The notes below the pieces were generated by a model. That model was not told where the DNA came from. It made no database searches and saw nothing but the letters and a program-made list of their open reading frames with translations. A DNA stretch of 64,000 nucleotides from a virus. Every line of letters starts with the position of its first letter. Within the stretch, counting starts at the first letter, position 1. The DNA is taken from positions 1-64,000 of IMG/VR virus record IMGVR_UViG_3300046318_000188; one strand, 5' to 3'. This document shows positions 11,810 through 58,121 of this stretch, one piece after another. Position numbers and translations under genes: made by a program.

Positions 11810-11832
11810 TTTAATTATTAGGAGATTATAAC

Positions 11833-46803: not shown

Positions 46804-47399
46804 TACCAAGAAAGTTAACTCCTTTCGACAAAGATAAACTCATTGACCACTTTATGCTTGATATTGTGGAAAATGATAGACGTTTGAGATTTGGTTATGA
46901 AGCACCAAATGATGCAGTCAAAAAATATATTGACGATTCACTACAAAATTATGGATATGTCAATATGTGGTTTGTTGTAGAAATTGATTCTTTTGACCGA
47001 TTTGATGGCAAAAAAATTATTGCTACTTGTCATGTGGCTATGAATAGAGAAACGAACACCGCCGAAATGGGTTGCACGGTTTCGCCTCAGTACCGTAACC
47101 AGAAACTGGGGCAAGAATTATTTAATCGTGGAATTACTTGGGCTAGAATGGCAGGTGCAGAAAATGTATTCATGCATTGCCTTTCTGAAAATAGAGCAAT
47201 TCAACATATCGCCAAGAAAGGTGGTATGACAGTTGTTACTATTGACCCATCTGAAAAAGAGTCCACGATTCAGATTAGACAGAATCGTTATGAAGCTGGT
47301 TTTAAAGATATGGTTATGGACCAGATTGCTGTTTATGACGCAGCAATCCGTCAACAGACATTCTTTGCTAAGAAGTTCTTGAAAGGTTTGGTAAAGTGA
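46800..47399 (+). CDS. GNAT-family acetyltransferase
   Basis: AEMGCTVSPQYRNQKLGQEL; ENRAIQHIAKK. Confidence 0.8.
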   Translation: MIPRKLTPFDKDKLIDHFMLDIVENDRRLRFGYEAPNDAVKKYIDDSLQNYGYVNMWFVVEIDSFDRFDGKKIIATCHVAMNRETNTAEMGCTVSPQYRNQKLGQELFNRGITWARMAGAENVFMHCLSENRAIQHIAKKGGMTVVTIDPSEKESTIQIRQNRYEAGFKDMVMDQIAVYDAAIRQQTFFAKKFLKGLVK

Positions 47400-47842
47400 A
47401 AGTAAAATTTATTCCAATGTATATGGAGATTGCTGGCATTATCGCCAAACAATCTTCAGCCAAAAGATTACAGGTTGGTGCGATTGTCGTAAAAGAAGAT
47501 AGAGTAATCTCCATCGGTTATAATGGTATGCCTGCTGGTTGGACCAATGAATGTGAAGAAGTGGTAGAAGTTCATGAAGATGGTGGAATCGTCACCAAAA
47601 CCAAACCAGAGGTCATTCACGCAGAGGCTAATGCCATCGCTAAACTGGCCAAAGGCAATGAATCTGGAGATGGTTCCACGATGTTCCTGACCCACGCTCC
47701 ATGCCTAGACTGCGCTAAACAAATTTATACCGCCGGCATCAAAACGGTATATTTTAAAGATTATTATAAGAATGTTGATGGAATACAGTTCCTAGAACGG
47801 TGCCATGTAAAAATCAAGAGAATTTCACCTGGTGAAATCTAG
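47396..47842 (+). CDS. dCMP deaminase-family protein
   Basis: GYNG; HAEANA; PCLDC. Confidence 0.9.
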   Translation: MKVKFIPMYMEIAGIIAKQSSAKRLQVGAIVVKEDRVISIGYNGMPAGWTNECEEVVEVHEDGGIVTKTKPEVIHAEANAIAKLAKGNESGDGSTMFLTHAPCLDCAKQIYTAGIKTVYFKDYYKNVDGIQFLERCHVKIKRISPGEI

Positions 47843-47922
47843 GTGCTTGATAAATATTGGTAAGTGTGATATAATTTAATTCGAAATGTGCTTATTGGGT
47901 CAACTTATTAAGGAGAGACCTA

Positions 47923-48420
47923 ATGCAGTTAAGTATAGTCGGTTGTCCCGATAAAAAACATTTCCGCCCGTTTGTAAAAAGGGCTGCCTTATTTTACGCT
48001 TCCGAATTGATTAAACCTAAGATGTTAGAAAACATCTTTTTGAGAATTAAATTTAGTTCTAAGATTGAAGCTCATGGATATGCCTCTGTGATAGAGTTCA
48101 GTAGAAGTAATAAACCAAGACAGTTTGAAATTGAATTACATCCTGGTATCGGCGCAGCAGAAATATTAAAAACACTCAGTCATGAAATGGTGCATATTAA
48201 GCAATACATTTATGGTGATGTTAATTTAAATCTGACCAGATGGAAAGGCAGTAAAGTTTTAGAACCTGATTATTGGGTTCAACCATGGGAAATAGAAGCC
48301 TATGGTATGCAAGCAGGACTATTTACAAAGTTTGCAGTAAAAGAAAAATTATGGAATATATTTGATGATATGTGTGATCCTGATAGTCCGATAGAAATGA
48401 AACCATTAGGTTGGAAATAA
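47923..48420 (+). CDS. HExxH putative metallopeptidase
   Basis: TLSHEMVHIKQY...QPWEIEAY. Confidence 0.7.
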   Translation: MQLSIVGCPDKKHFRPFVKRAALFYASELIKPKMLENIFLRIKFSSKIEAHGYASVIEFSRSNKPRQFEIELHPGIGAAEILKTLSHEMVHIKQYIYGDVNLNLTRWKGSKVLEPDYWVQPWEIEAYGMQAGLFTKFAVKEKLWNIFDDMCDPDSPIEMKPLGWK

Positions 48421-48421
48421 A

Positions 48422-48443
48422 TGTTGCTAAAAAGCAACAGTAT
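48422..48443. promoter_or_regulatory. Operator-like palindrome TGTTG-N8-CAACA(GTAT), copy 1
   Basis: Same motif recurs at 49233-49254, each upstream of a promoter. Confidence 0.5.
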
Positions 48444-48465
48444 TTGGTAAATAATTACAAAGTTG

Positions 48466-48494
48466 TTGACAATTGAGCATATATACTATATCAT
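48466..48494 (+). promoter_or_regulatory. Sigma70-type promoter P1 of tRNA locus
   Basis: TTGACA-17-TATCAT. Confidence 0.75.
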
Positions 48495-48531
48495 ACACAG
48501 TATTGAATAAATTAATTAAGAAAGAAATAAA

Positions 48532-48633
48532 ATGTTGTTTGTAACGAAACCTTTATCCATGCAGTCAGAGTATCGCACACCGAGCAATTGGCCAGCGATT
48601 GGCTTTGACCATGCCTCAGGGGTTCGTGTATAG
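48532..48633 (+). CDS. Putative attenuator leader peptide (33 aa) MLFVTKPLSMQSEYRTPSNWPAIGFDHASGVRV
   Basis: ORF between promoter and terminator; 3' codons complementary to terminator 5' arm. Confidence 0.7.
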   Translation: MLFVTKPLSMQSEYRTPSNWPAIGFDHASGVRV

Positions 48634-48666
48634 AACAAAAGTAATTTCCTTTCACACACGAACCCT
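48619..48666 (+). promoter_or_regulatory. Antiterminator helix
   Basis: GGGTTCGTGT (48620-29) is the perfect complement of ACACGAACCC (48656-65), which overlaps the terminator stem. Confidence 0.75.
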
Positions 48667-48694
48667 AGTCTAAACAACTAGGGTTTTTTGTTTT
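48661..48694 (+). terminator. Intrinsic terminator (attenuator) upstream of tRNA array
   Basis: AACCCTAGT-ctaaaca-ACTAGGGTT then TTTTGTTTT. Confidence 0.85.
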
Positions 48695-48705
48695 CCAGTT
48701 TCAAA

Positions 48706-48761
48706 TTACTAGACACTAAAATTTCAGTCTAGTAACGCTCTCTAAAAATTTAAGTAGTAAC
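48706..48761 (+). promoter_or_regulatory. Hairpin + boxA-like element (rrn-type antitermination signal)
   Basis: TTACTAGAC/GTCTAGTAA stem, then CGCTCTCTAAAAA-TTTAAGTAGTAAC. Confidence 0.55.
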
Positions 48762-48764
48762 TAT

Positions 48765-48838
48765 TGAGATATAGTGTAACGGTAGCACCACGCACTTTGA
48801 CTGCGTTAGCATAGGTTCAAATCCTATTATCTCTACCA
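48765..48838 (+). tRNA. tRNA-Gln(TTG)
   Basis: Cloverleaf, ACGCA-CT-TTG-AC-TGCGT, CCA. Confidence 0.9.
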
Positions 48839-48840
48839 AT

Positions 48841-48934
48841 GGAAGGTAATGCAGCGGGGATGGTCCTGCGACTGGCCTTGAAAACCAGGTTCTGCCTAAA
48901 AGCGGATGGGGTTCGACTCCTCTGCCTTCCGCCA
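48841..48934 (+). tRNA. tRNA-Ser(TGA), probable 8/4 fold
   Basis: Long variable arm, G73, CCA. Confidence 0.85.
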
Positions 48935-49057
48935 TATTGAAGCATACTGCGGTGGTGTTACATATTATATCTAGTCAATATAATATGCCTATGCTAAGAG
49001 TATGATTAAATGTTCCGACAGCCTTAGACTAAGGTTCATTAGTGTGCTTCAATATGG
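48932..49057 (+). ncRNA. Long-stem RNA cassette 1
   Basis: CCATATTGAAGCATACT / AGTGTGCTTCAATATGG terminal stem. Confidence 0.65.
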
Positions 49058-49063
49058 TTTATT

Positions 49064-49150
49064 GGAAGATGTGTTGCAAGGTGCGACCGAAGTTTGCTAA
49101 ACTTCCGTTCAGAAATGGGCTGATAGGTTCGATTCCTATATCTTCCGCCA
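49064..49150 (+). tRNA. tRNA-Ser(GCT)
   Basis: Long variable arm, G73, CCA. Confidence 0.88.
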
Positions 49151-49152
49151 AT

Positions 49153-49227
49153 GGTGGTGTGACCGAATGGTGAGGTGACAGTCTGCAAAACTGGTCCAAG
49201 TAGGTTCGATTCCTATCACCACCTCCA
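49153..49227 (+). tRNA. tRNA-Cys(GCA)
   Basis: Cloverleaf, U73, CCA. Confidence 0.9.
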
Positions 49228-49232
49228 GTATG

Positions 49233-49335
49233 TGTTGTACCAAAACAACAGTATCAAAAATAGTTCTTGTGGTATTTTTTGGTTCGTGTATAATAGTTGT
49301 TCTGTTGTAAAGTTCTTTAAAAATTAAGTAGTAAC
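49233..49335 (+). promoter_or_regulatory. Promoter P2: palindrome copy 2, TTGTGG-16-TATAAT, boxA-like
   Basis: TGTTG-N8-CAACAGTAT; TATAAT 49289-94; AGTTCTTTAAAAATTAAGTAGTAAC 49311-35. Confidence 0.6.
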
Positions 49336-49338
49336 AAT

Positions 49339-49413
49339 ACACCGTTCGTCTATCGGTTAGGACCCAAGGTTTTCAACCTTGTAAGAGGAGTTCAACTCTC
49401 CTACGGTGTACCA
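49339..49413 (+). tRNA. tRNA-Glu(TTC)
   Basis: CAAGG-TT-TTC-AA-CCTTG, CCA. Confidence 0.9.
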
Positions 49414-49527
49414 TATTGAAGCACATTTAAACCTTAACAGGTCGGTATTGGTAAGCCAAAACCTCTATTAGTAAGTTCGAGAATTTATTAGTAAGTTTAT
49501 TTCACCTTAATGTGTTTCAATATGGTA
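49409..49527 (+). ncRNA. Long-stem RNA cassette 2
   Basis: TACCATATTGAAGCACATT / AATGTGTTTCAATATGGTA. Confidence 0.65.
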
Positions 49528-49674
49528 AGTAATGGCAAAAAATATAATATTGTTCTTTTTAATCTTGCTAATATCGCGGTTAGTGGGTGACATAAGAAAA
49601 ATGTTAAACAAGTATGCGACCTAGAAGCGGGTGGACAAACGTGACTGTGGGCCACCAAGGTAGTCAACATTACA

Positions 49675-49753
49675 TACTATATTGAAACATATTAGATCAG
49701 TGACCGTTCCGACAGGTGCGGCGACATTAAAGTGAGTGTGTTTCAATATGGTA
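49675..49753 (+). ncRNA. Long-stem RNA cassette 3
   Basis: TACTATATTGAAACATATT / AGTGTGTTTCAATATGGTA (3 G.U pairs). Confidence 0.65.
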
Positions 49754-49754
49754 A

Positions 49755-49873
49755 TATCTGAAGCATAGCAAGTGATGCTAGAGGTAGGGGTAAGCATTGA
49801 ACTCGAGATAGGTGCTTATGAGTAACTCGACCGGTCTCACCCGGTGAAGCGTATTGCAACCATACGCCAGATA
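49755..49873 (+). ncRNA. Multi-hairpin structured RNA candidate
   Basis: TATCTG/CAGATA closing stem around five hairpins. Confidence 0.5.
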
Positions 49874-49874
49874 C

Positions 49875-49949
49875 ACCATATTAAAACACACTTCAGGCGG
49901 GGAGGCTCCGCTCCAAATATCAAAGTGAGGTAGTGTGTTTCAATATGGT
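49875..49949 (+). ncRNA. Long-stem RNA cassette 4
   Basis: ACCATATTAAAACACACT / AGTGTGTTTCAATATGGT. Confidence 0.65.
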
Positions 49950-50009
49950 ATGACTCTGCTGGGTATGAATCAGATTCTCCGGCGGGTAAGTTACTACCAT
50001 ATCAAATTT

Positions 50010-50084
50010 GGTTCGTTCATATAACGGTAATTATGCTGGACTGTCTATCCGGATACAGGAGTTCGATTCTCCTACGAACCGCCA
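50010..50084 (+). tRNA. tRNA-Asp(GTC)
   Basis: Cloverleaf, G73, CCA. Confidence 0.9.
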
Positions 50085-50092
50085 AGTTTTAT

Positions 50093-50170
50093 TGTCCGAG
50101 AGCAAGCAAGGTGTAGGCGCCTGACTGTTAATCAGGAATGAGTGAGGTTCGATTCCTCATCGGACAGCCA
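50093..50170 (+). tRNA. tRNA-Asn(GTT)
   Basis: CCTGA-CT-GTT-AA-TCAGG, CCA. Confidence 0.88.
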
Positions 50171-50179
50171 AGTTTCAAT

Positions 50180-50261
50180 GGTGTGGATGCTCTAATGGTA
50201 GGGCAGCGGGCTGTAAACCCGTGGCTTCGGCAAGTAGGTTCGATCCCTACCCACATCACCA
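50180..50261 (+). tRNA. tRNA-Tyr(GTA)
   Basis: Variable arm, CCA. Confidence 0.9.
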
Positions 50262-50269
50262 AGTTTTAT

Positions 50270-50347
50270 CTCAGTATAGGCTAGCCTGGTCAAGTCACTC
50301 CGTTTGGGGCGGAGAGTGCGTAAGTTCGAATCTTACTACTGAGACCA
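50270..50347 (+). tRNA. tRNA-Pro(TGG)
   Basis: CTCCG-TT-TGG-GG-CGGAG, CCA. Confidence 0.9.
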
Positions 50348-50488
50348 TATTGTAGTTGTAACGATATTACTACGTTGCTAGAAGCGTAGTCTGACGGCTG
50401 GTTAAGGATACACGGTGTCCACGGAATAAGGGAACCAGAATTTCGAGTGCTGACAGGTAAGCTGTCATCTTTTTAAAGGAGAAGTAAA

Positions 50489-50671
50489 ATGAAACCAAGA
50501 AATATATTTGCCGTGTTGGCAAGTAAACGGAAGGCGGGCCCGCACCGCAAAAGCAATAAAGCTTTACGCAAGAAAGAAAAACAATCGGGGTATAATTCAA
50601 CGGCTAGAATATCCGGCTTTTACCCGGACTATCAGAGTTCGAATCTCTGTGCCTCGACCAGTTTATCTTAA
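50489..50671 (+). CDS. Basic small protein whose ORF runs through tRNA-Lys (ArfA-like candidate)
   Basis: Strong RBS AAGGAG; 32 K/R-rich codons precede the tRNA with no stop. Confidence 0.6.
   Translation: MKPRNIFAVLASKRKAGPHRKSNKALRKKEKQSGYNSTARISGFYPDYQSSNLCASTSLS
50586..50660 (+). tRNA. tRNA-Lys(TTT)
   Basis: TCCGG-CT-TTT-AC-CCGGA, CCA. Confidence 0.88.
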
Positions 50672-50763
50672 AACATACTAACGCCAAAAACTGGCGGTCT
50701 AGCGTCAACTAGGCGAAACTGTATTTGACGATGCAGAGGATTAGTATGTTTCAAAATAAATTG
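50659..50763 (+). ncRNA. Long-stem RNA cassette 5 (three internal hairpins)
   Basis: CAGTTTATCTTAAAACATACTAA / TTAGTATGTTTCAAAATAAATTG. Confidence 0.6.
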
Positions 50764-50766
50764 TAA

Positions 50767-50841
50767 GCTCTCAAAACATAAATGGTGATGTGCTGGTTTT
50801 GTAATCCAGATAACTTGGTTCGATTCCGAGTGAGAGCACCA
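50767..50841 (+). tRNA. tRNA-Thr(TGT)
   Basis: Cloverleaf, CCA. Confidence 0.85.
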
Positions 50842-50846
50842 AATTT

Positions 50847-50918
50847 GGGCTGTGTGCAGGGGCACAAGGATGCTTTGCAAGCAACCTCTGGTCGGTTCGA
50901 TACCGACACGGTCCACCA
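50847..50918 (+). tRNA. tRNA-Ala(TGC), reduced D-arm
   Basis: G3.U70, anticodon TGC, CCA; 72 nt. Confidence 0.8.
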
Positions 50919-50923
50919 AACAT

Positions 50924-50998
50924 GGTAGTGTAGCATAATGGTCGTGCGCCTCCTTCATACGGAGAAAAGTATAAGTTCGAATCTTATCACTACCACCA
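50924..50998 (+). tRNA. tRNA-Met(CAT), probably elongator
   Basis: CTCC-TT-CAT-AC-GGAG, CCA. Confidence 0.8.
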
Positions 50999-51095
50999 GT
51001 TTGTTAAGTTAAGTGCAGTAACATGGGTTGAGTGATCCTCTCAGCCGATTAACAACGGAGTTGGCCGTACCGTCTGCATACGAGCCCCAAATTAT

Positions 51096-51172
51096 GGGTC
51101 ATTAACATCAAATGGAAGATGCCTGTCTTACGAAGTCAGAAGTTGGGAGTTCGAATCTCTCATGACCCTCCA
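51096..51172 (+). tRNA. tRNA-Arg(ACG)
   Basis: CTGTC-TT-ACG-AA-GTCAG, CCA. Confidence 0.8.
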
Positions 51173-51179
51173 GTTTTAC

Positions 51180-51253
51180 ACCTAGGTAGCTCAATGGTAG
51201 AGCAATCGGCTGATAACCGATAGACAGAAGTTCAATTCTTCTTCTAGGTACCA
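51180..51253 (+). tRNA. tRNA-Ile(GAT)
   Basis: ATCGG-CT-GAT-AA-CCGAT, CCA. Confidence 0.9.
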
Positions 51254-51371
51254 GAGCAGACCCACAGGATCCGCAAGGCTGTCAAACTCTTAACCTGTTA
51301 AAATAAACAAGAGTGAGTTCCGCCAGTAACTTTCACAAGGAGATGAGTTGAATAAACTCACTGGCAACTAT

Positions 51372-51446
51372 TTCTCGGTGGTGTTAACGGTAGCACACTG
51401 GTCTCCAAAACCATAAGTTGCGGTTCGAATCCGTACCGGGAAGCCA
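51372..51446 (+). tRNA. tRNA-Trp(CCA)
   Basis: TGGT-CT-CCA-AA-ACCA, G73, CCA. Confidence 0.88.
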
Positions 51447-51466
51447 TAATAATAAAAGGAGTTAGC

Positions 51467-51943
51467 ATGAAAAAGTTAGATATAGTAGAAGTCAAAAGAT
51501 TCATTGAAGCACAATCTGAAGATACTAAAATCTATCTTGGTGCTGACTCTGAAAGATTTGAAATCAAAGGTGAATGGTATGCTGACTACACATTAGCAGT
51601 AGTTGTTCATATTGATGGATGTCATGGTTGTAAAATCTTTGGTGAAGTTATTCGTGAAAGAGATTATGACCAAAAGAAAAATAAACCTGCTTTAAGATTG
51701 ATGAATGAAGTTTACAAAGTTTCAGATTTATTTCAATCTCTTGCGGATGTATTAGAAGATAGGTACGTTGAGGTACATTTAGATATTAACCCAAATGAAT
51801 TATATGGTTCATCTTGTGTAGTTCAACAAGCGATTGGTTATATCAAAGGTACTTGTAATGTTATACCTATGGTTAAACCAAAAGCTTTTGCTGCTTCATA
51901 TGCGGCAGATAGATTAAAGTTTGTTTTAGCTGAAGCAGCTTAA
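51467..51943 (+). CDS. RNase H-like YkuK (DUF458) family protein
   Basis: KIYLGADS...RLMNEV...EVHLDIN..GSS...KP.AFAASYAAD. Confidence 0.8.
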   Translation: MKKLDIVEVKRFIEAQSEDTKIYLGADSERFEIKGEWYADYTLAVVVHIDGCHGCKIFGEVIRERDYDQKKNKPALRLMNEVYKVSDLFQSLADVLEDRYVEVHLDINPNELYGSSCVVQQAIGYIKGTCNVIPMVKPKAFAASYAADRLKFVLAEAA

Positions 51944-51947
51944 CTAT

Positions 51948-52021
51948 GTGGCTCCTAGTGTAATGGTTGCACACTTGTCTGTGAAACAAGTAGAGAGGGT
52001 TCGATTCCCCGGTTCCACCCA
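51948..52021 (+). tRNA. tRNA-His(GTG), irregular stems
   Basis: G-1:C73, CTTGT-CT-GTG-AA-ACAAG, CCA; two acceptor mismatches. Confidence 0.75.
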
Positions 52022-52030
52022 AAGGATATT

Positions 52031-52249
52031 ATGTATAGAGTAAAATGGATTAAAGATGTTTATGATAATGATGTAAAAGAATTTCATACTTTAGATGAAG
52101 CAATGAATTATGCAAAACAATTAGATATAACTGTTGAGATTAAAACTCCAGATTATACTGTTGTTGGTAAATTTGGAGTTGATTCAGTAGAAAATCTAAT
52201 TCTGCCGAATGGTGCAGAGTATGGATATGTAAAACGTAGATACAAGTAA
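52031..52249 (+). CDS. Hypothetical protein
   Basis: RBS AAGGA; VVGKFGVDSV. Confidence 0.6.
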   Translation: MYRVKWIKDVYDNDVKEFHTLDEAMNYAKQLDITVEIKTPDYTVVGKFGVDSVENLILPNGAEYGYVKRRYK

Positions 52250-52252
52250 TAT

Positions 52253-52326
52253 GCCTCGGTAGTTTAATAGTAGAACACCGCTCTTACAAAGCGAAGACGG
52301 CGGAGCGTTACCGCAACGAGGTACCA
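52253..52326 (+). tRNA. tRNA-Val(TAC), non-canonical T-loop
   Basis: CGCT-CT-TAC-AA-AGCG; T-loop AGCGTTA; CCA. Confidence 0.75.
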
Positions 52327-52328
52327 AT

Positions 52329-52404
52329 GCAACTTTAGCTGATGTGGTCATAGCGGTGGTCTGAAGAGCCATTGAACCAAGTTCGATCCTTGGAGGTTGC
52401 ACCA
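52329..52404 (+). tRNA. tRNA-Phe(GAA)
   Basis: Cloverleaf, CCA. Confidence 0.9.
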
Positions 52405-52409
52405 GTTTT

Positions 52410-52483
52410 GCTCTTATAGTATAATGGCATTACACATCCTTGGTAAGGATGAAACACAAGTTCAATTCTTGTTAAGAGCACCA
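52410..52483 (+). tRNA. tRNA-Thr(GGT)
   Basis: CATCC-TT-GGT-AA-GGATG, CCA. Confidence 0.9.
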
Positions 52484-52485
52484 AT

Positions 52486-52562
52486 GCCCTTGTAGCGCAA
52501 TTGGTAGAGGCAATGGTCTTAGAAGCCATCAAGTGTCAGTTCGAATCTGACCAAGGGTACCA
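52486..52562 (+). tRNA. tRNA-Leu(TAG), short variable loop
   Basis: ATGGT-CT-TAG-AA-GCCAT, CCA. Confidence 0.87.
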
Positions 52563-52563
52563 A

Positions 52564-52640
52564 GCGGTTGTGATGGAAATGGTATACGTACCGGACTTAA
52601 AATTCGGGTTTTGTGGGTTCAAGTCCCACCTTCCGCACCA
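52564..52640 (+). tRNA. tRNA-Leu(TAA), short variable loop
   Basis: CCGGA-CT-TAA-AA-TTCGG, CCA. Confidence 0.87.
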
Positions 52641-52642
52641 AA

Positions 52643-52698
52643 TAACTTTACAATGATGTTGCTTTAACTTTACAATAGTGTTATAATAACTTTACAAT
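52643..52698 (+). repeat. Three TAACTTTACAAT direct repeats, 22-bp period, overlapping a promoter
   Basis: Copies at 52643, 52665, 52687; TTGCTT-17-TATAAT (52659-52687) with TG extension. Confidence 0.85.
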
Positions 52699-52701
52699 AA
52701 A

Positions 52702-52776
52702 CTGGCTATAGTATAATGGAGAATACAGAAGGCTTCTACCCTTTTAATGTGGGTTCGATTCCTGCTAGCCAGACCA
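52702..52776 (+). tRNA. tRNA-Arg(TCT)
   Basis: GAAGG-CT-TCT-AC-CCTTT, CCA. Confidence 0.88.
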
Positions 52777-52781
52777 AATTT

Positions 52782-52856
52782 GGGCCGTTAGCATATCGGT
52801 AGATGCCGGCGACTCATAATCGTCAGAAGAAAGTTCGACTCTTTCACGGCCCACCA
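52782..52856 (+). tRNA. tRNA(CAT), probably Ile2 (lysidine)
   Basis: GGCGACTCATAATCG anticodon arm resembles bacterial tRNA-Ile2. Confidence 0.75.
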
Positions 52857-52873
52857 AGTTTACCATAATGTTG

Positions 52874-52902
52874 TTGACAAAGTTGTATAAGTATAGTATA
52901 GT
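52874..52902 (+). promoter_or_regulatory. Sigma70-type promoter before tRNA-Gly cluster
   Basis: TTGACA-17-TATAGT. Confidence 0.75.
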
Positions 52903-52921
52903 TACTACTTGAACGAAATAT

Positions 52922-52988
52922 GCGGTGTGTGATAGCACGATTCGAGATACCCTCTTGAATTATCTGAGCAAAGCAGACCACCGCTCCA
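52922..52988 (+). ncRNA. Miniature tRNA-Gly-like RNA (anticodon ACC), 67 nt
   Basis: GCGGTG/CACCGC-T-CCA acceptor, tiny D-arm, 7-bp anticodon stem, 4-bp T-stem. Confidence 0.7.
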
Positions 52989-52995
52989 AATTTAT

Positions 52996-53069
52996 GCGGG
53001 TATGATGTAAAGGTAACCTGAGTCCTTGCCAAGGACTATTTGAGAGTTCGATTCTCTCTGCCCGCTCCA
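52996..53069 (+). tRNA. tRNA-Gly(GCC)
   Basis: AGTCC-TT-GCC-AA-GGACT, U73, CCA. Confidence 0.9.
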
Positions 53070-53084
53070 CTAAAAGGAATTGTT

Positions 53085-53288
53085 ATGGCTGCTGTAAAAT
53101 CTAAAAAGAAGAATCCAATGTTAACCAAGAATGGTAAACAGCGATTAGGTCCTTTGAACATTGAACAATTGTCTAAAATGTTAGATGGTGCTCGCAAGAA
53201 ACATATTCCTAAAATCAAGAAAGCCATTGCAAAGCGATTACAAACGCAACAGTTTGGCAAAGATGCAGAGCCAGTAGTTTCAGAATAA
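53085..53288 (+). CDS. Small basic hypothetical protein
   Basis: RBS AAGGA before ATG 53085. Confidence 0.6.
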   Translation: MAAVKSKKKNPMLTKNGKQRLGPLNIEQLSKMLDGARKKHIPKIKKAIAKRLQTQQFGKDAEPVVSE

Positions 53289-53294
53289 AAATTT

Positions 53295-53368
53295 GCGGGA
53301 TTAGTTTAATGGTAAAACTAGAGGTTTCCAACCTTTCGTTGTCAGTTCGATTCTGTCATCCCGCTCCA
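53295..53368 (+). tRNA. tRNA-Gly(TCC) copy 1
   Basis: Cloverleaf, U73, CCA. Confidence 0.88.
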
Positions 53369-53374
53369 GTTTGT

Positions 53375-53450
53375 TGGCATATAGCTCAGTTGGTAGAGCA
53401 CCGGACTGTTAATCCGTAGGTCCTTGGTTCGAGCCCAAGTTTGCCAGCCA
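53375..53450 (+). tRNA. tRNA-Asn(GTT) copy 2
   Basis: Canonical cloverleaf, CCA. Confidence 0.92.
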
Positions 53451-53495
53451 TATATAAGTGTTGTAATATGTTTATTTTATTAAGAAGGAATTGAA

Positions 53496-54272
53496 ATGAA
53501 AAAATCACTATTAGCAGTAATGTTGGTTGCATCAGGTGTAGTGTCAGCTGCAGAAGTATTTGATGGTAATCTTACAGGCAATATGACTTTAGCAAGTAAC
53601 TACGAATTTCGTGGTATTAGTTTAAGTCAAAATGGTCCTGCAATTCAAGGTGGTATCGACTACGCACATAGTTCAGGTATTTACATCGGTAACTGGAATT
53701 CCAGTATGCGTGGTGTTCCAAACATGAACAATGATGACATCGATAGTAATAGTGGTACACAATCAAATCTATATGCTGGTTGGCGTAAAGATGTTTACAA
53801 AGGCATTATTGTTGACTTAGGTACTATTAGTTACCTTTATCCTACCGCAACAGCCGGTGGTTCAAAAACAAATTACAGCACAAACGAAGTATATGCCGGT
53901 TTAGGTTATGGTCCTGTTTCTGTCAAGTTCAGCCAAACAACCTCAAATTACTTTGGTGTTAACAACAGTTCTGGCACACAATACTACCAAGCTGACATCA
54001 AACAAAGTTTAGGTGCTCTTGCATCACAACTCAAACCATTAAGTGTTGTTGCACATTATGGTCATACATCAATGGCTGGTAACGGCAACAGTAATTTGAA
54101 TTACAATGACATGAACATTGGTTTAGTATATTCATTCCCAGAGCAATGGGACTTAGGTGTTCGTTACTACACCAATTCATCTATGACAAGCACATTCCAA
54201 CAATATAATAGTTGGAATGGTACCAAGTTTTATGGTGATTCTGTTGTAGCAACATTGACAAAAACGTTTTAA
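53496..54272 (+). CDS. TorF / TIGR02001 (Gcw_chp) putative outer-membrane porin
   Basis: Signal peptide; SNYEFRGISLSQNGPAIQGGIDY; terminal Phe. Confidence 0.85.
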   Translation: MKKSLLAVMLVASGVVSAAEVFDGNLTGNMTLASNYEFRGISLSQNGPAIQGGIDYAHSSGIYIGNWNSSMRGVPNMNNDDIDSNSGTQSNLYAGWRKDVYKGIIVDLGTISYLYPTATAGGSKTNYSTNEVYAGLGYGPVSVKFSQTTSNYFGVNNSSGTQYYQADIKQSLGALASQLKPLSVVAHYGHTSMAGNGNSNLNYNDMNIGLVYSFPEQWDLGVRYYTNSSMTSTFQQYNSWNGTKFYGDSVVATLTKTF

Positions 54273-54299
54273 GTATTAAACTGCTGGAGAAATCTCAGC

Positions 54300-54508
54300 A
54301 ATCATCATTGAGAATGTGAGCGTAAGAGTAAGCAATCCCAACTGTTAGGGAAATCACTATCCTTGAGGTATCCATCCGAGATCCGGAGATGACTGCTGGC
54401 TGAAGCAGTATGAAAGGTGTAATCAGGGAGAGGTCAGTACATAGGACGGGTTAAAGACCGCACCGGTGAGAACCTCTTAAACACAAAACAGTATTCTCAA
54501 TAATGATT
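54300..54508 (+). ncRNA. ~200-nt structured RNA candidate
   Basis: ATCATCATTGAGAATG / TATTCTCAATAATGAT closing stem; GC-richer interior hairpins. Confidence 0.5.
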
Positions 54509-55543
54509 AAGAAAATTAAAATCGCAATACTTGTACCATCATATAAAGAAGAAAAGGTAATTGATAAAACAATAGTTTCATTATTAAAAGCAGGATTCTT
54601 AAAAGAAGATATCTACATTGTTGATGATTGTTCTAAGGATGAAACGAGCAATATTGCTTTGAGTTATAATGTTAATGTTTTAACGCTTACAAAAAATTCA
54701 GGCAAAGCTGGAGCAACAAAATCTGGATTTGACCATTTCAATCTTATCAAAAGATATGATTGGGTTACGCTTGTTGACGGCGATTCAATTTTATCCAAAG
54801 ATTTCATTTCTGTATTAAAAACAGCAATTAAAAAAGATTCGAGTCCAGGTTTGTATGTTGGCCAAGTAGTCAGCATTAAAAACAATTCTATCTTTTCAAC
54901 TTATCGAGCATATGAATACACATATGGCCACGAAATTGTTAAGAAGGGACAAGATAACTTTGGCACAATCTTTGTAAGTCCTGGTTGTTGTAGTGTATAT
55001 CGTACCAATGTTTTAAAACAATTAGATATTTCAAGTGATACATTGGCTGAGGATATGGATTTAACCATACAGACACACCGATTAGGTTATCGTGTTCGAT
55101 ATTTACATGACCTTATTGCTTATACACAAGACCCAAATAATCTCAAAGATTTCTATAAACAGATTACTCGTTGGTACAGAGGATTCTGGCAGATTATGAA
55201 GAAGCATAAAGTGCTTTCTTTAACACAATGGAGTAAAGTAGATATATACTTAAAAATTATAACGATTGATGCAGTCATTTTTAATAGAATTTTCATGACT
55301 GTATTCGTTTTAGCGTTATTTGATTTAAAAGTATTGTTAATAGGCATGAGTATGGATTACTTACTCCTAGCAGCAATATCAATATACGCAGCAATTTTAG
55401 CCAAAAACTGGCGTATATTTTTTTATAGTCCAATATTTTATTTTATTGGATTGATGAATTCAACAGCATATTTGAAAGCATTTGTTGAGGTATTCATATT
55501 TGGTAAAATTGTATTAAGTTGGAATAAAGTTAAAAGATATTAA
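54503..55543 (+). CDS. Membrane GT2 glycosyltransferase (PgaC/cellulose-synthase-like)
   Basis: VDDCS, DGD, LAED, QITRW motifs plus C-terminal TM helices. Confidence 0.88.
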   Translation: MIKKIKIAILVPSYKEEKVIDKTIVSLLKAGFLKEDIYIVDDCSKDETSNIALSYNVNVLTLTKNSGKAGATKSGFDHFNLIKRYDWVTLVDGDSILSKDFISVLKTAIKKDSSPGLYVGQVVSIKNNSIFSTYRAYEYTYGHEIVKKGQDNFGTIFVSPGCCSVYRTNVLKQLDISSDTLAEDMDLTIQTHRLGYRVRYLHDLIAYTQDPNNLKDFYKQITRWYRGFWQIMKKHKVLSLTQWSKVDIYLKIITIDAVIFNRIFMTVFVLALFDLKVLLIGMSMDYLLLAAISIYAAILAKNWRIFFYSPIFYFIGLMNSTAYLKAFVEVFIFGKIVLSWNKVKRY

Positions 55544-55551
55544 CCAGTAAG

Positions 55552-55559
55552 TATAAATA
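55552..55559 (+). promoter_or_regulatory. T4-type late promoter
   Basis: TATAAATA. Confidence 0.5.
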
Positions 55560-55593
55560 CTTATATAACGTGTAAATTAATTATAGGAATAGT

Positions 55594-56130
55594 ATGAAAA
55601 AGATTATTTTAGCAGCATTAATAGGATTCGTAACAACGGCATACGCTGCGGATGAGATTCCTACAAAGGATTCAAAGTATACTCCTTCACCGGTTACTCA
55701 GGCAGAAGGCATGAATAGTTGGTTTAATGAGGCGAGTGCTGGTAGTGGCCCCATTGCAATGCCAGGATATTCTTGGGGATTTGCAGGAACACCAAGCACT
55801 TTTACAGCAGGAGCACCAAACAATGCTGTTGGATATTCTGCCAAAATTGAACAAGGTGTAGATTGGTTCGCTTTTGATGAAGATAAAAAGTGGAGATTCA
55901 ACACTTTTGTTAATGCTGTTATCAGCAAAGACACCAGTAATTATGCTTATACTTATGGTAACTTGTTTACTCCAGGTGTAGGTGCAAAGATTCGTAATGT
56001 ATATGATAGTGGCCTAATTGAAATTGGTGCACAATATGTAAAACAAAATAACTTAACTACATCATCAGCTAGTGGACAAGGCGTACAAGCCTTTGTTAGC
56101 TATTGGTTCGGTTGGGACTTAAAGAAATAA
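55594..56130 (+). CDS. Exported protein, possible small outer-membrane beta-barrel
   Basis: Signal peptide; alternating aromatic C-term SYWFGWDL. Confidence 0.6.
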   Translation: MKKIILAALIGFVTTAYAADEIPTKDSKYTPSPVTQAEGMNSWFNEASAGSGPIAMPGYSWGFAGTPSTFTAGAPNNAVGYSAKIEQGVDWFAFDEDKKWRFNTFVNAVISKDTSNYAYTYGNLFTPGVGAKIRNVYDSGLIEIGAQYVKQNNLTTSSASGQGVQAFVSYWFGWDLKK

Positions 56131-56143
56131 TAGGAAAAATAAT

Positions 56144-56329
56144 ATGTCAGGTCCAGTCGCAAGCAATTCCTTGTTGTTCAATTTAGGTATGCGTTATCCA
56201 GTAGTTACTGCTGCAATTGCTACAGTTGCAACCGTAGCTACACTTAATGCACCATTAGAAATAGCACAAATTACACCACAACCAGCACCTACGGAGCTTC
56301 CAGTTTTACTTAAAACTATTGCAGGATAA
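56144..56329 (+). CDS. Small hypothetical protein
   Basis: RBS AGGA; hydrophobic core. Confidence 0.45.
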   Translation: MSGPVASNSLLFNLGMRYPVVTAAIATVATVATLNAPLEIAQITPQPAPTELPVLLKTIAG

Positions 56330-56332
56330 TTA

Positions 56333-56692
56333 TTGATTATGTTATTTGATGTGATTGTGAATGTGACTACTGCAATGATTTGTTTTACAGGACAATGTTA
56401 TCCTGTCCTTGTTGGAGATAATACTCCACTAGGTGAATATCAATTAACACCTTATCGTACTCCGATACCGGCTTATGGTGGTACTGTTTTAGCATTTAAA
56501 GAAACAGATAAGGTAGTATATGCTATTCATAGAACAATTGATGTTAAGGGACAAAATAGAGCCGTTAGGATTAAATCTCCTGATGTAAAACAAAGATTAC
56601 ATATCACCAATGGCTGTATTAATGTTGAACCTGAAGTATATCAAAAATTAATGAATTGTTGTTCTAAAAGTAAAGTGCAACTGATTAAATAA
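56333..56692 (+). CDS. L,D-transpeptidase (YkuD)-like protein
   Basis: TPLGEY...AIHRT...ITNGCINV catalytic-type motif. Confidence 0.7.
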   Translation: MIMLFDVIVNVTTAMICFTGQCYPVLVGDNTPLGEYQLTPYRTPIPAYGGTVLAFKETDKVVYAIHRTIDVKGQNRAVRIKSPDVKQRLHITNGCINVEPEVYQKLMNCCSKSKVQLIK

Positions 56693-56696
56693 TATT

Positions 56697-57089
56697 ATGA
56701 AAAATTTGTTGAGTATTCTTTTTATTATTTGTATGCCAGTATACGGCCAAACTTCTGGTATTGTAATTCACAATATTATGAGGTCACAGATTGCTCCAAA
56801 TGCCGGAGCACTATTCAATCTACAAGTTAAAGCTCCAGTAACTGAAGATGATTGGATTCAATTAAATAAAAATGTATCTGCATTACATAACGCAGCACAT
56901 TCTTTAAAAAAACTCAATACAAATACAGAATGGCAACAACGAGTAGATGCAATTGATATATTGTCCGAAATGTCAATCGAACAGGTTAAAGATAGAAATG
57001 TTCGAGGTCTATCGAACACAGGGAATGCACTATATAATTTATGTGAATCTTGTCATTATCAATTCTTTCCTAAAGGTAAGAATCTTTAG
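56697..57089 (+). CDS. Exported cytochrome c'-like protein
   Basis: Signal peptide; helical; C-terminal CESCH haem motif. Confidence 0.65.
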   Translation: MKNLLSILFIICMPVYGQTSGIVIHNIMRSQIAPNAGALFNLQVKAPVTEDDWIQLNKNVSALHNAAHSLKKLNTNTEWQQRVDAIDILSEMSIEQVKDRNVRGLSNTGNALYNLCESCHYQFFPKGKNL

Positions 57090-57100
57090 TATATAACAAT

Positions 57101-57175
57101 AGCGGTGTAGCTCAGTAGTAGAGCGCCGGACTCATAATCCGGATGTCGGTAGTGCGAATCTACCCACCGCAACCA
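57101..57175 (+). tRNA. tRNA-Met(CAT), initiator-like
   Basis: 1:72 mismatch; CCGGA-CT-CAT-AA-TCCGG; CCA. Confidence 0.8.
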
Positions 57176-57188
57176 ACAAGGAGATATT

Positions 57189-57344
57189 ATGTCAGAAGAT
57201 GATAAAAAATTTCATGAAGAACAATTAAAAAAGGTTCGAGATTTAAAACCTGTTGGCAAACCACAACAGAGGCCAGCATTAAAACCCAAACCAAATTTCG
57301 TACCTAAAAATACTGTAATGCGTAAAGCTGGCCGAGGTAGGTGA
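57189..57344 (+). CDS. Small basic hypothetical protein (51 aa)
   Basis: RBS AAGGAG; ends MRKAGRGR. Confidence 0.6.
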   Translation: MSEDDKKFHEEQLKKVRDLKPVGKPQQRPALKPKPNFVPKNTVMRKAGRGR

Positions 57345-57350
57345 TACAAC

Positions 57351-57644
57351 CTAACTTAAAGTATTTTGTCCCACAGCTAAAACACAACCCAATGATTTAT
57401 CCATTTCAATCAATGTCCATGATCCCGTTTCTTTATTGGAAAACATAACAATTTGAGTTTTTCTTTTGGTTATTTCATTTGAATAAAAGAAAACAGCGGA
57501 CTCTTTGAATTGAGTGTCAATCGTATAGAGAAGTATTTTGGTTGGAAAACATTGTACAGATTTGCTATAGAAATCGCCATCATTTTCTTTAGCAATTGTC
57601 ATTGAGGGTATCACAACAAGAAGCGCCAAAAGCAATTTTTTCAT
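57351..57644 (-). CDS. Exported hypothetical protein
   Basis: Signal peptide; RBS AAGGA on minus strand; N.ETGSWTLIE..GCVLAVG. Confidence 0.65.
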   Translation of the reverse strand: MKKLLLALLVVIPSMTIAKENDGDFYSKSVQCFPTKILLYTIDTQFKESAVFFYSNEITKRKTQIVMFSNKETGSWTLIEMDKSLGCVLAVGQNTLS

Positions 57645-57678
57645 CGGAATCCTTTTTTGGTATATAATTATATATGTC

Positions 57679-57707
57679 TTTACATTTGTATATTTTAGTA
57701 GTATAAT
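57679..57707 (+). promoter_or_regulatory. Sigma70-type promoter
   Basis: TTTACA-17-TATAAT. Confidence 0.7.
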
Positions 57708-57717
57708 GATTCATTAT

Positions 57718-57791
57718 GCGGGATTAGTTTAATGGTAAAACTAGAGATTTCCAATCTTTCGTCATCAGTTCGATTCTGATATCCCGCTCCA
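57718..57791 (+). tRNA. tRNA-Gly(TCC) copy 2
   Basis: 68/74 identical to 53295-53368. Confidence 0.9.
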
Positions 57792-57808
57792 CTTTATCAG
57801 GAGAAAAC

Positions 57809-58120
57809 ATGGAAGTATTAGCCCTTAAATTAATTACCGGTGAAGATTTACTTGGTGAACTAGAATCACAATCAGAAACCGAATTCGTTATTGTAAATCC
57901 TGTGGGTATTGCAGTAGTTCGTGGTAAAGATGGCACACCACAAGTTGGATTCTCACCATTCCCTATTCATGCGGAACAAAAATCAGGTGCAACTATTGCC
58001 TTGGCCAAGAAGAATGTAGTATACTCTTATACACCAGCAGAAGATTTTATTACAAACTATAGTTCAATCTTTGGTTCTGGTATTGTAGTTCCTCCACAAA
58101 AACAAATTATTACAGGTTAA
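57809..58120 (+). CDS. Conserved hypothetical (Sm-like fold) protein
   Basis: LKLITGEDLLG...FGSGIVVP. Confidence 0.65.
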   Translation: MEVLALKLITGEDLLGELESQSETEFVIVNPVGIAVVRGKDGTPQVGFSPFPIHAEQKSGATIALAKKNVVYSYTPAEDFITNYSSIFGSGIVVPPQKQIITG

Positions 58121-58121
58121 A

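Follow-up and report, generated by a model that had tools for sequence, protein, structure and literature searches.

The DNA between the tRNA genes of a freshwater T4-like phage houses a new and strongly covarying RNA family, absent from the libraries, whose closing helix uses a functional CCA as its first pairs. Five of these hairpin cassettes lie on the plus strand of the window, the whole stretch of 64,000 nucleotides that was analysed. When the tRNA region of the window is taken together with 199 IMG/VR loci (the scan of IMG/VR relatives comprised at least 120 stretches), the family amounts to at least 331 cassettes, at least 239 of them distinct, in 200 sequences. The DNA that separates phage tRNAs is usually ignored; here, a good part of it is a large RNA family.

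A preliminary description of this DNA had placed five elements in the window, and the search for arms, the search for repeats, folding and a covariance model all recover them (Table 1). Matches to the arm consensus number nine in the window against 0.97 expected, and nine or more were seen in 0 of 100 shuffles. Eight of these arm positions fall within 48931-49949, while a stray one, with three mismatches, is at 19029. The repeat search finds the same arm pairs, and a diverged fifth pair (50659-50681 with 50741-50763, 23 nt, 87% complementary). All five cassettes fold as closed hairpins with z values of -4.6 to -7.1 that none of 200 shuffles equalled, and all five are scored by the covariance model, which was trained on 13 cassettes, copies 3 and 4 of the window among them.

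Table 1. Features of the tRNA region of the window: positions, fold z values and covariance-model scores.
Feature	Positions	Strand	Fold z	Model score (bits)	Remarks
Type II tRNA-like gene	48841..48934	+			Rfam clan CL00001 match 48841-48930, 38 bits
Cassette 1	48931..49058	+	-4.57	42.0	Helix 48931-48949 with 49040-49058; insert about 90 nt
tRNA-Glu(UUC)	49339..49413	+			Discriminator and CCA (49410-49413) open cassette 2
Cassette 2	49410..49526	+	-7.07	50.2	Helix 49410-49428 with 49508-49526
Inter-cassette segment X	49527..49675	+	-1.0 (not significant)		Paired ends; repeat search
Cassette 3	49676..49752	+	-6.68	63.5	Three U.G pairs on the + strand
Inter-cassette segment Y	49754..49878	+	-1.2 (not significant)		Ends CACCA; its ACCA opens cassette 4
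Cassette 4	49875..49949	+	-5.32	62.4	A.C mismatch at helix position 8 (49883)
Spacer before tRNA-Asp	49950..50009	+			Ends in L-arm-like fragment ACCATATCAA without partner
tRNA-Lys(UUU)	50586..50660	+			Cassette 5 directly 3'
Cassette 5, diverged subfamily	about 50659..50763	+	-5.66	26.1 (at 50662-50760)	23-nt arm pair

Several details of the preliminary description stand as well. At helix position 11, copy 1 has G-C, copy 2 has G.U, and both copies 3 and 4 have A-U; the A.C mismatch common to copies 4 and 5 occupies the same helix position; the inserts of copies 1 and 3 contain GTTCCGACAG and those of copies 3 and 4 contain AAAGTGAG. The stem indeed takes in the CCA of the type II tRNA-like gene in copy 1 (48931-48934, with the discriminator, make its first pairs) and that of tRNA-Glu in copy 2, but in copy 5, from the CCA of tRNA-Lys, just the final A. 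At their 3' side, cassette 1 stops 5 nt short of tRNA-Ser(GCU), at 49064, and cassette 5 stops 3 nt short of tRNA-Thr (50767). The outer stem of the latter begins with GTTTAT instead of CCATAT, and the same is true at the Lys junction of three relatives (L009, L012 and L014). The type II tRNA-like gene has no ARAGORN call at 48841-48930; inspected by eye, it would be a tRNA-Ser(UGA), and L014 and L012 have it at the orthologous position.

The two segments between cassettes find no support as tRNAs, with neither an ARAGORN nor an Rfam call and no significant fold. The ends of segment X pair, lengthening the complementarity between the 3' arm of cassette 2 and the 5' arm of cassette 3 to 27 nt, and its 3' end is ACTA, against ACCA in the other segments; it also holds a putative 30-aa hydrophobic ORF (49532-49624). 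The minimum-energy fold of segment Y resembles a cloverleaf, with a 6-bp terminal stem and an arm with a 7-nt loop adjoining the 3' strand, and to the eye this predicted shape might be that of a tRNA-like molecule. The partnerless fragment ACCATATCAA before tRNA-Asp is probably a remnant.

No Rfam family matches the cassettes. Searched with Rfam 15 at E<=1 (positions 47000-58500) and at E<=10 (positions 49400-50010), the window gave nothing but matches to the tRNA clan and, over the cassettes, noise (mir-653, 24 bits for a cut-off of 77). In six loci rich in cassettes, too, whatever lay outside the tRNA clan was noise below threshold. In the literature, supplements excluded, we found no description of such elements. 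No cassettes were found in phages T4 and DLP6, the tRNA region of T4 having no match to covariance model R1 at E<=1. A blastn search of deposited phage genomes with 49400-49960 gave no match at E<=0.01, which does not imply absence, since a 19-nt arm is below what such a search can pick up. Among 185,579 prokaryote genomes there was one match. Some cassettes sit between protein genes, outside tRNA clusters, and arrays of four cassettes without intervening tRNAs lie behind a perfect TTGACA-17-TATAAT promoter.

The original proposal of an RNA helix, and not a DNA palindrome, is strongly supported, the strand concerned being that of the tRNAs: the evidence comes from covariation, an excess of G.U on this strand, pairing that tracks the discriminator and the fixed orientation of the inserts. 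In 52 cassettes, 96.0% of the cells are paired (85.0% in shuffles), with double changes at 16 of the 19 stem pairs, in 107 cells; the covariation measures were reached in 0 of 500 shuffles, and controls in which the arms were slid pair at 31-52%. Stems at the same junction can have quite different sequences with full compensation, and a near-identical strain, seen in a DNA run, carries A>G at 49883, which turns the A.C of cassette 4 into G-C. With the at least 239 distinct cassettes oriented by the tRNA strand, helix positions 0-18 hold 411 G.U against 59 A.C, and position 16 is U.G in 197 of the 239 listed. This strand asymmetry, which the preliminary description had read in the window, is convincing only with the relatives; the six G.U and three A.C mismatches of the window (hand count) prove nothing by themselves. 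For 89.5% of the 239 listed cassettes, stability favours the sense over the antisense RNA, with a mean difference of 6.1 kcal/mol. Finally, of 916 contexts at tRNA 3' ends, 24 pair at 18 of 18 positions when G.U is allowed, four when A.C is allowed, and none with the arm reversed. Among 159 representatives, 97 have no internal mismatch and the insert spans 21-161 nt.

The 5' (L) arm opens with the discriminator and CCA that end the preceding RNA. In 118 of the 239 listed cassettes, the L-arm CCA coincides with the end of an ARAGORN tRNA, and a T-loop is found at tRNA distance in 17 more; 104 are without an upstream tRNA-like end. The last base of the 3' (R) arm tracks the discriminator (A-U in 143, G.U in 46), and in a set of 46 the discriminator pairs include four U-A and two C-G. 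Cassettes that come first after a consensus promoter have AGCA where the CCA would be. Downstream, 75 of the 239 have the start of a tRNA at -3 to 12 nt relative to the R arm. The helix starting so exactly at the discriminator and CCA, one may wonder whether it controls the preceding tRNA by masking the CCA end, either delaying RNase P or aminoacylation, blocking 3' exonucleases or insulating neighbours, cleavage being secondary. The UGG of the R arm is sometimes G1G2 of the next tRNA (in L009), and certain tRNAs are preferred, the 118 distinct cassettes with an ARAGORN tRNA before them following Glu in 33 cases, Lys in 28 and Leu in 19. Yet the preference for Glu and Lys may simply reflect shared synteny, the final A is all that is paired of the CCA in cassette 5 and its orthologues, 104 cassettes are without an upstream tRNA-like end, and a mature tRNA must shed the helix anyway. 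We hold this view to be very improbable.

The inserts are highly variable. They form 159 clusters among the 239 listed distinct cassettes, 115 of them singletons; each insert of window copies 1-4, those with consensus arms, is a singleton cluster, and that of cassette 3 comprises a hairpin and a purine tail common to an insert family of eight members. Their orientation is fixed: homologous inserts gave 268 ordered matches on the plus strand and none on the minus strand, so that inversion between the inverted arms, a process we considered, was not seen. A number of inserts look like pieces of tRNA. GGTTCGA is present in 13 of the 159 clusters (0.5 expected) and GTTCRA in 21 (about 13%), in nine of which its distance to the R arm, 5-8 nt, is the one to be expected where a T-arm abuts an acceptor strand; D-arm features in tRNA register also occur. 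Two of these 21 clusters were scanned with the Rfam tRNA model (RF00005, cut-off 29 bits). The L162 cassette scores 31.4 bits, its inner helix taking the place of the acceptor stem and 39 nt that of the anticodon arm; the L121 cassette scores 16.8, below the cut-off. None of the five window cassettes matches RF00005.

This might suggest that the inserts are what matters, each cassette being the gene of a stable small RNA (in some cases a tRNA mimic that lacks the acceptor) which acts as a decoy, sponge or ligand for RNA-binding factors of host or phage, while the stem is a stabilising or recognition handle. Insert families are indeed conserved across phages, always in one orientation, some with compensatory changes in their hairpins; T-arm and D-arm features keep the register of a tRNA; the tRNA-free arrays have their own perfect promoter; and the tRNA cluster of T4 ends with the genes of two stable RNAs that are tRNA-like, rnaC and rnaD. 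Against this, 115 of the 159 clusters in the listed sample are singletons, and the compensatory changes come from few sequences (one pair in a set of nine, four pairs in a set of four). No window insert matches any Rfam family, and the record (about 73% complete) has no Ro60/TROVE (PF05731) or RtcB gene. Guides, an idea of the preliminary description, or antisense cargo aimed at the phage's own genome find no support either: the longest exact matches of the five window inserts and segments X and Y elsewhere in the 121,872-base genome, both strands included, are 11-14 nt, against 13-15 nt in shuffles. That the inserts are small RNA genes in their own right thus appears to us unlikely. A more elaborate variant would see an exchangeable library, in which the common stem, cut from tRNA precursors or promoter-driven arrays, displays inserts that are hypervariable yet fixed in orientation; these would serve as decoys or ligands for host defences that target tRNA or for other RNA-binding factors, and would be traded by recombination in the arms. 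We find this decidedly doubtful. Some of the inserts are indeed tRNA bodies that lack an acceptor end or an ordinary anticodon arm.

Cassettes come and go between relatives. At the Glu-Asp junction there is none in L014, where the empty site reads Glu-CCA-A-Asp, one in L009 and L012, and three, with two extra segments, in the window; the L014 junction is an empty site of the kind for which the preliminary description had proposed to look. Inserts are exchanged between stems and junctions: that of cassette 2 is 83% identical to the insert of a Lys>Ala cassette in L012, and that of cassette 5 is 89% identical to the insert of a Gly>Gly cassette in L014. Loci L039 and L040 share an insert identical at 60 of 61 positions (hand count), despite a common gene only about 70% identical and neighbouring tRNAs that differ. 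Arms are slightly more alike within a locus (similarity 0.853, against 0.837 otherwise), a difference reached in 0 of 500 permutations.

All this, together with the many insert clusters and the cassettes found between protein genes, would fit selfish or neutral modular DNA that spreads in tRNA clusters by arm recombination or some unknown enzyme, the helix being kept for the harmless removal of functionless inserts. An element with terminal inverted repeats that inserts either way should, however, give both orientations, and the inserts are never inverted. No target-site duplication is evident by eye when the one empty site, L014, is compared with the filled junctions of L009 and L012, and some insert hairpins are kept through compensatory changes. 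No transposase was found, a weak point because the searches covered RNase III, TROVE and RtcB only. The G.U excess and the pairing of the discriminator betray selection on RNA, which is nevertheless compatible with selfish DNA. On balance, we assign this explanation a rather low probability. Of the mobile element at tRNA 3' ends that was first suggested, gain and loss, variation in number, swapping of inserts and sites away from tRNAs survive, whereas transposon-like insertion is unlikely, given that inserts are never inverted, no target duplication is seen and interiors differ between copies. Integron attC sites and retron a1/a2 repeats were considered and set aside, their core motifs fitting poorly, and no integrase or reverse transcriptase was found.

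The reading that we prefer turns on the precursor itself. With the 5' arm at the CCA of one tRNA and the 3' arm often ending 0-12 nt before the next, trailer and leader are zipped into a helix of 19-20 bp that closes the insert. Each cassette would be a hairpin module transcribed within a polycistronic tRNA precursor. Escherichia coli RNase III cuts regular double-stranded RNA of about two turns, and it excises rRNAs from their leader-trailer stems; 89% of the 159 representative helices are 18-23 bp long (mode 19-20), which is about two turns. The helices are probably cutting sites that separate tRNAs and release small RNAs, and we see an even chance that each is a trailer-leader processing site for a double-strand-specific endonuclease, most simply host RNase III. 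A cut in the helix would part adjacent tRNAs of the precursor and set the insert loose as a small RNA with a short stem. The downstream leader would next be trimmed by RNase P, and the upstream trailer shortened by 3' exonucleases as far as the encoded CCA. The enzyme would be the host's, since the phage record, about 73% complete, has no RNase III gene (PF14622) in its 121,872 bases. The processing handle with variable cargo of the preliminary description fits this anatomy, 18-23 bp from trailer to leader; its cleavage we infer. Two RNA runs consist of contigs that match only the tRNAs of other organisms (85-95%) and leave the cassettes uncovered.

Some observations sit uneasily with processing. 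The Glu-Asp junction of L014 is empty, 48 of the 239 listed cassettes have before them no tRNA-like end and no other cassette, and a few cassettes lie between protein genes. Most junctions between tRNAs in these phages are at most 15 nt long and without a helix (258 of 724 distinct spacers), which means that the helix is dispensable for separating tRNAs; of the spacers of 40-260 nt, only 42 of 237 have one. The A.C mismatch at position 8 recurs in 27 of the 239 listed cassettes, which selection for pairing alone does not explain. Arm sequence conserved beyond pairing hints at a sequence-specific partner or at the spread of modules. A DUF458/YkuK RNase H-like gene in the cluster was considered as a dedicated nuclease, but no link emerged, DLP6 having this gene in its tRNA cluster and no helices; a search for sequence relatives of solved structure gave none at E<=1.

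As to origin, the ancestors of the family were probably tRNA or tRNA-like genes in which leader and trailer paired: in some inserts a tRNA body survives, with the inner part of the helix as its acceptor stem. Inserts may then have been gained, lost and exchanged by recombination between conserved arms, and the family diversified in this way. In the textbook scheme, tRNA precursors mature through RNase E and RNase P. If the helix is a cutting site, viral tRNAs would follow a different route, and each phage lineage would make dozens of new small RNAs. The tRNA-like inserts and their rapid exchange bear on the role of the stable RNAs of T4-type phages, and on phage answers to host defences that attack tRNA. 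In addition, more than 200 variants of one helix make a natural data set for the substrate rules of double-strand-specific nucleases.

How do these elements compare with known systems? The leader-trailer stems of 16S and 23S rRNA and the T7 sites of the R1.1 type are RNase III processing sites. There too, a helix of about two turns is built from sequence 5' and 3' of an enclosed RNA, and one double-strand cut parts enclosed and flanking RNAs, as we infer for the cassettes. Unlike these sites, the 5' strand of a cassette starts with a functional tRNA CCA, the enclosed RNA is hypervariable, and the elements, whose cleavage is presumed, are repeated within a cluster and gained or lost between close relatives. 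The species 1 and 2 RNAs of T4 (rnaC and rnaD) are small stable RNAs encoded directly after a tRNA in a T4-type cluster, and RNase III is reported to cut species 1 RNA in vitro. With its T-arm and terminal pairing, rnaC resembles the tRNA-like inserts, as rnaD, which ends in CACCA, resembles segment Y. What is shared is location and tRNA-like features: T4 has no CCA-anchored 19-bp helix (its best trailer helix reaches at most 13 of 18 positions), and neither RNA matches the cassette model at E<=1. Bacterial Y RNAs of the YrlA type join a long stem of their 5' and 3' ends to a tRNA-like module, a similar design, with the long stem replacing the acceptor stem in the cassettes; there is no match to a Rfam Y RNA, nor a TROVE gene (PF05731) in the roughly 73%-complete record.

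MITEs and other elements with terminal inverted repeats have ends like the cassette arms of 17-23 nt. Copies of a MITE share their interior and insert both ways, whereas the cassettes have 159 insert clusters, none inverted, and no target duplication was found at the one empty site compared. The Correia repeats (CREE) and similar MITE hairpins are also short, bounded by inverted repeats and co-transcribed with their neighbours, and they form hairpins that RNase III binds and then cuts or protects (PMC2649163). Finally, T4-type phages have PeSLs, conserved motifs at sites of insertion, deletion and replacement that have been proposed to promote the shuffling of modules through recombination (PMC4122927, PMC2839356). 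A PeSL is an early promoter with a small terminator-like stem-loop, a direct repeat flanking ORFs in hyperplastic regions (PMC4122927); the cassettes differ from PeSLs in being inverted-repeat hairpins, at tRNA junctions, that carry their cargo within a long helix.

In this phage, a conserved, strand-specific RNA helix of two turns forms between the 3′ end of a stable RNA and the leader of the following one, and it encloses an insert that is locked in orientation and often structured. The preliminary description had proposed five such cassettes with covarying stems among the tRNAs. They are real: the consensus of the arms (L and R, the 5′ and 3′ strands of the closing helix) matches the window 9 times for 0.97 expected, a number reached by 0 of 100 shuffles, and eight of the nine matches fall between 48931 and 49949 in the alternation L, R, L, R. 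A repeat search recovers the same arm pairs together with the diverged fifth (50659-50681/50741-50763), and all five cassettes fold as closed hairpins (z -4.6 to -7.1). The position that is G-C, G.U or A-U depending on the copy, the common A.C, both motifs that recur between inserts and the presence within the stem of the CCA of the preceding tRNA are each confirmed in the sequence. With 6 G.U against 3 A.C mismatches, the window would not by itself suffice to show an RNA helix. The L-arm-like starts that lack an R arm are probably remnants of lost cassettes.

Features in and around the tRNA cluster of the window
Feature	Positions	Strand	Remarks
Cassette 1	48931-49058		
Cassette 2	49410-49526		
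Cassette 3	49676-49752		
Cassette 4	49875-49949		
Cassette 5	~50659-50763		diverged
L-arm-like start ACCATATCAA	49995-50009		before tRNA-Asp; no R arm
L-arm-like start ACCATATTG	50345-50370		after tRNA-Pro; no R arm
60-aa basic ORF	50489-50671	+	strong AAGGAG site ahead; reads into and through tRNA-Lys (50586-50660)
DUF458/YkuK-type RNase H-like gene	51467-51943	+	PF04308, 54.8 bits; inside tRNA cluster
82-aa basic ORF	53040-53288	+	spacer from tRNA-Gly(GCC) to tRNA-Gly(UCC)
Gcw_chp family gene	53496-54272	+	PF09694, 142.6 bits; directly after tRNA cluster
22-nt direct repeats TAACTTTACAAT...	52643-52708		three in tandem, between tRNA-Leu and tRNA-Arg
Fourth copy of 22-nt repeat TAACTTTACAAT...	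52855-52876		after tRNA-Met
Motif TTAAGTAGTAAC	48745-48764		just upstream of tRNA-Gln
Motif TTAAGTAGTAAC	49319-49340		just upstream of tRNA-Glu
Motif TTAAGTAGTAAC	52896-52913		inverted, once

The full record, whose first 64 kb make up the window, has 121,872 bases and is about 73% complete; PHROG matches to terminase, sheath, portal, major head protein, a gp46-like nuclease and DNA polymerase identify it as a T4-type myovirus. Sequencing runs in which the region is present are freshwater or aquatic metagenomes. In the window, all ORFs of at least 200 aa are on the + strand, with the single exception of 5200-5976, nested in a 1,090-aa + strand ORF. ARAGORN finds 27 tRNAs there, 25 of them within 48765-53450, and Rfam adds two tRNA-clan matches (48841-48930 and 52253-52323). 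The Gcw_chp family, which we take to be one of outer-membrane beta-barrels, would give a hint of a Gram-negative host. The 22-nt repeats may be promoter-like or processing signals. The surroundings of the 60-aa ORF (~50470-50585) are conserved at 86-94% DNA identity across seven loci (L009-L012, L014, L092, L158), some of which represent one and the same contig. At a Gly-Gly junction of relative L014 (7407-7519), where the order of the two genes is reversed, lies a hairpin cassette with an insert resembling that of window copy 5. CUA-anticodon tRNAs, of the amber-suppressor type, occur in the clusters of relative L027 (~7900, tRNA-Pyl(cta) by ARAGORN) and of Stenotrophomonas phage DLP6 (L210, 11675-11746).

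The PF04308 gene, for which a sequence search at E<=1 gives no relative with a solved structure, led to further cassettes. It has 302 relatives in IMG/VR; the arm motif is present in 56 of the 80 loci examined among these, and a gapped arm pattern retrieves at least 120 further stretches from the same database. The census covers 200 sequences oriented by their tRNAs, one being the tRNA region of the window and the other 199 coming from IMG/VR loci, and counts 331 cassettes, 239 of them distinct. The cassettes are absent from T4 and from DLP6, the closest deposited phage with a PF04308 gene, which there too (6001-6471, 60.5% identity) lies within a tRNA cluster. Among 185,579 prokaryote species genomes the pattern yields one stretch, a 1,478-base contig with three cassettes in a row in a Candidatus Planktophila (actinobacterial) MAG bin; in all likelihood a piece of phage DNA was assigned to the bin, and the find is a weak hint at best as to the host. 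Neither the cassettes of the window nor those of six cassette-rich loci match a family in Rfam, and the literature searched yielded no description of such elements.

That the stem is an RNA helix rather than a DNA palindrome, as first suggested, is borne out by pairing, covariation and an excess of G.U on the tRNA strand. In an alignment of 52 cassettes, standard pairs fill 96.0% of cells against 85.0% in shuffles, and changes on both sides affect 16 of 19 pairs (107 cells); 0 of 500 shuffles reached any pairing or covariation measure, and shifting the partner by 1-3 columns leaves only 31-52% of cells paired. The 239 distinct cassettes have 411 G.U against 59 A.C over helix positions 0-18, with 27 of the 59 at position 8; position 16 is U.G in 197. 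Sense RNA folds more stably than antisense in 89.5% of cassettes. A consensus-free search of 916 contexts, starting from tRNA 3′ ends alone, gives 18/18 pairing in 24 contexts with G.U allowed, in 4 with A.C instead and in none with a reversed arm; it also yields stems of wholly different sequence starting at the same NCCA, so that selection acts on structure and not on sequence only. A single DNA strand folded in the same sense might in principle give an identical asymmetry; RNA is the simpler reading, given the densely transcribed tRNA cluster.

The helix begins at the discriminator base, is 18-23 bp long in 89% of 159 representatives (mode 19-20) and encloses 21-161 nt (median 49). In 118 of the 239 cassettes the L arm takes its CCA from the end of an ARAGORN tRNA; a T-loop lies at tRNA distance upstream in 17 more, another cassette within 200 nt in 55 and something else in 48. 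The final base of the R arm varies with the discriminator (A-U in 143, G.U in 46), becoming U-A behind tRNA-Gly, and a tRNA starts -3 to 12 nt from the R arm in 75/239; in L009, G1G2 of tRNA-Asp are part of the UGG paired with CCA. That the helix serves to mask CCA, which such pairing would fit, is quite improbable. CCA is not retained where a cassette comes first behind a perfect TTGACA-17-TATAAT promoter. Behind such promoters, L139 (~11528-12218, tRNA-sense) and L148 (801-1442) carry tRNA-free arrays of four cassettes, whose inter-cassette segments terminate in NCCA; upstream contexts of the array type, among them ..GGGGCT..AGTAGCC.ACA and GACTATGG.AGTC.ACAGTAGGG, recur at cassettes of other loci.

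Inserts are hypervariable: the 239 cassettes form 159 insert clusters, 115 of them singletons. Their most enriched words belong to the tRNA T-loop, GGTTCGA occurring in 13 clusters for 0.5 expected and GTTCRA in 21, in nine of which it stands 5-8 nt from the R arm, the spacing of a T-arm that adjoins the acceptor strand. Of two GTTCRA cassettes scanned, one passes the Rfam tRNA cut-off (31.4 bits), its inner seven helix pairs serving as acceptor stem around an oversized middle; the other scores 16.8 bits. Compensatory changes preserve internal hairpins in some inserts, and window copy 3 has the hairpin and purine tail of an eight-member family. These features would suit functional small RNAs or tRNA mimics, a reading that we hold doubtful; none of the five window inserts is tRNA-like by the T-loop or Rfam tests.

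The preliminary description had also considered a mobile element, and here gain, loss and recombination of modules do stand. The Glu-Asp junction has no cassette in L014, one each in L009 and L012, and three in the window together with inter-cassette segments X (49527-49675) and Y (49754-49878). At the Lys junction of four relatives, a site-specific outer stem is kept around four different inserts. The insert of window copy 2 resembles that of the L012 Lys junction (83%), and that of copy 5 the L014 Gly junction (89%); L039 and L040 share an insert at 60/61 positions, set in different arm variants and flanked by different tRNAs, their shared protein gene being ~70% identical in DNA. Arms are slightly more similar within a locus (0.853) than between loci (0.837), and a few cassettes lie between protein genes. 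Inserts never occur inverted (268 plus-strand ordered matches, 0 minus-strand) and copies have no common interior, which makes a classical transposon unlikely. Selfish recombining modules, to which such exchange might point, seem to us an unlikely account.

With evenly balanced confidence, we propose that the helix is a substrate for a double-stranded RNA endonuclease, most simply host RNase III. A single cut through its two turns would part the neighbouring tRNAs and liberate the insert, RNase P and 3′ exonucleases then completing the ends. This cleavage reading is weakened by the many tRNA junctions that are helix-free and by the recurrence of A.C at the helix centre. The three alternatives are all compatible with it.

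Among the closest known systems are the leader-trailer stems of rRNA type and phage RNase III sites, the T4 stable RNAs C and D, whose function is unexplained, the Correia-type hairpins bound by RNase III (PMC2649163) and the PeSL shuffling cassettes (PMC4122927). In the membership tests run, the family shows no homology to the T4 RNAs and lacks the features of PeSLs; it has the terminal inverted repeats of Correia-type elements but neither their common interior nor their insertion in both orientations, and it has the regular two-turn helix of an RNase III site. We rate it as a structured, putative processing spacer of a stable-RNA operon, unusual in its CCA-anchored stem, its hypervariable, partly tRNA-derived inserts and its rapid modular exchange.
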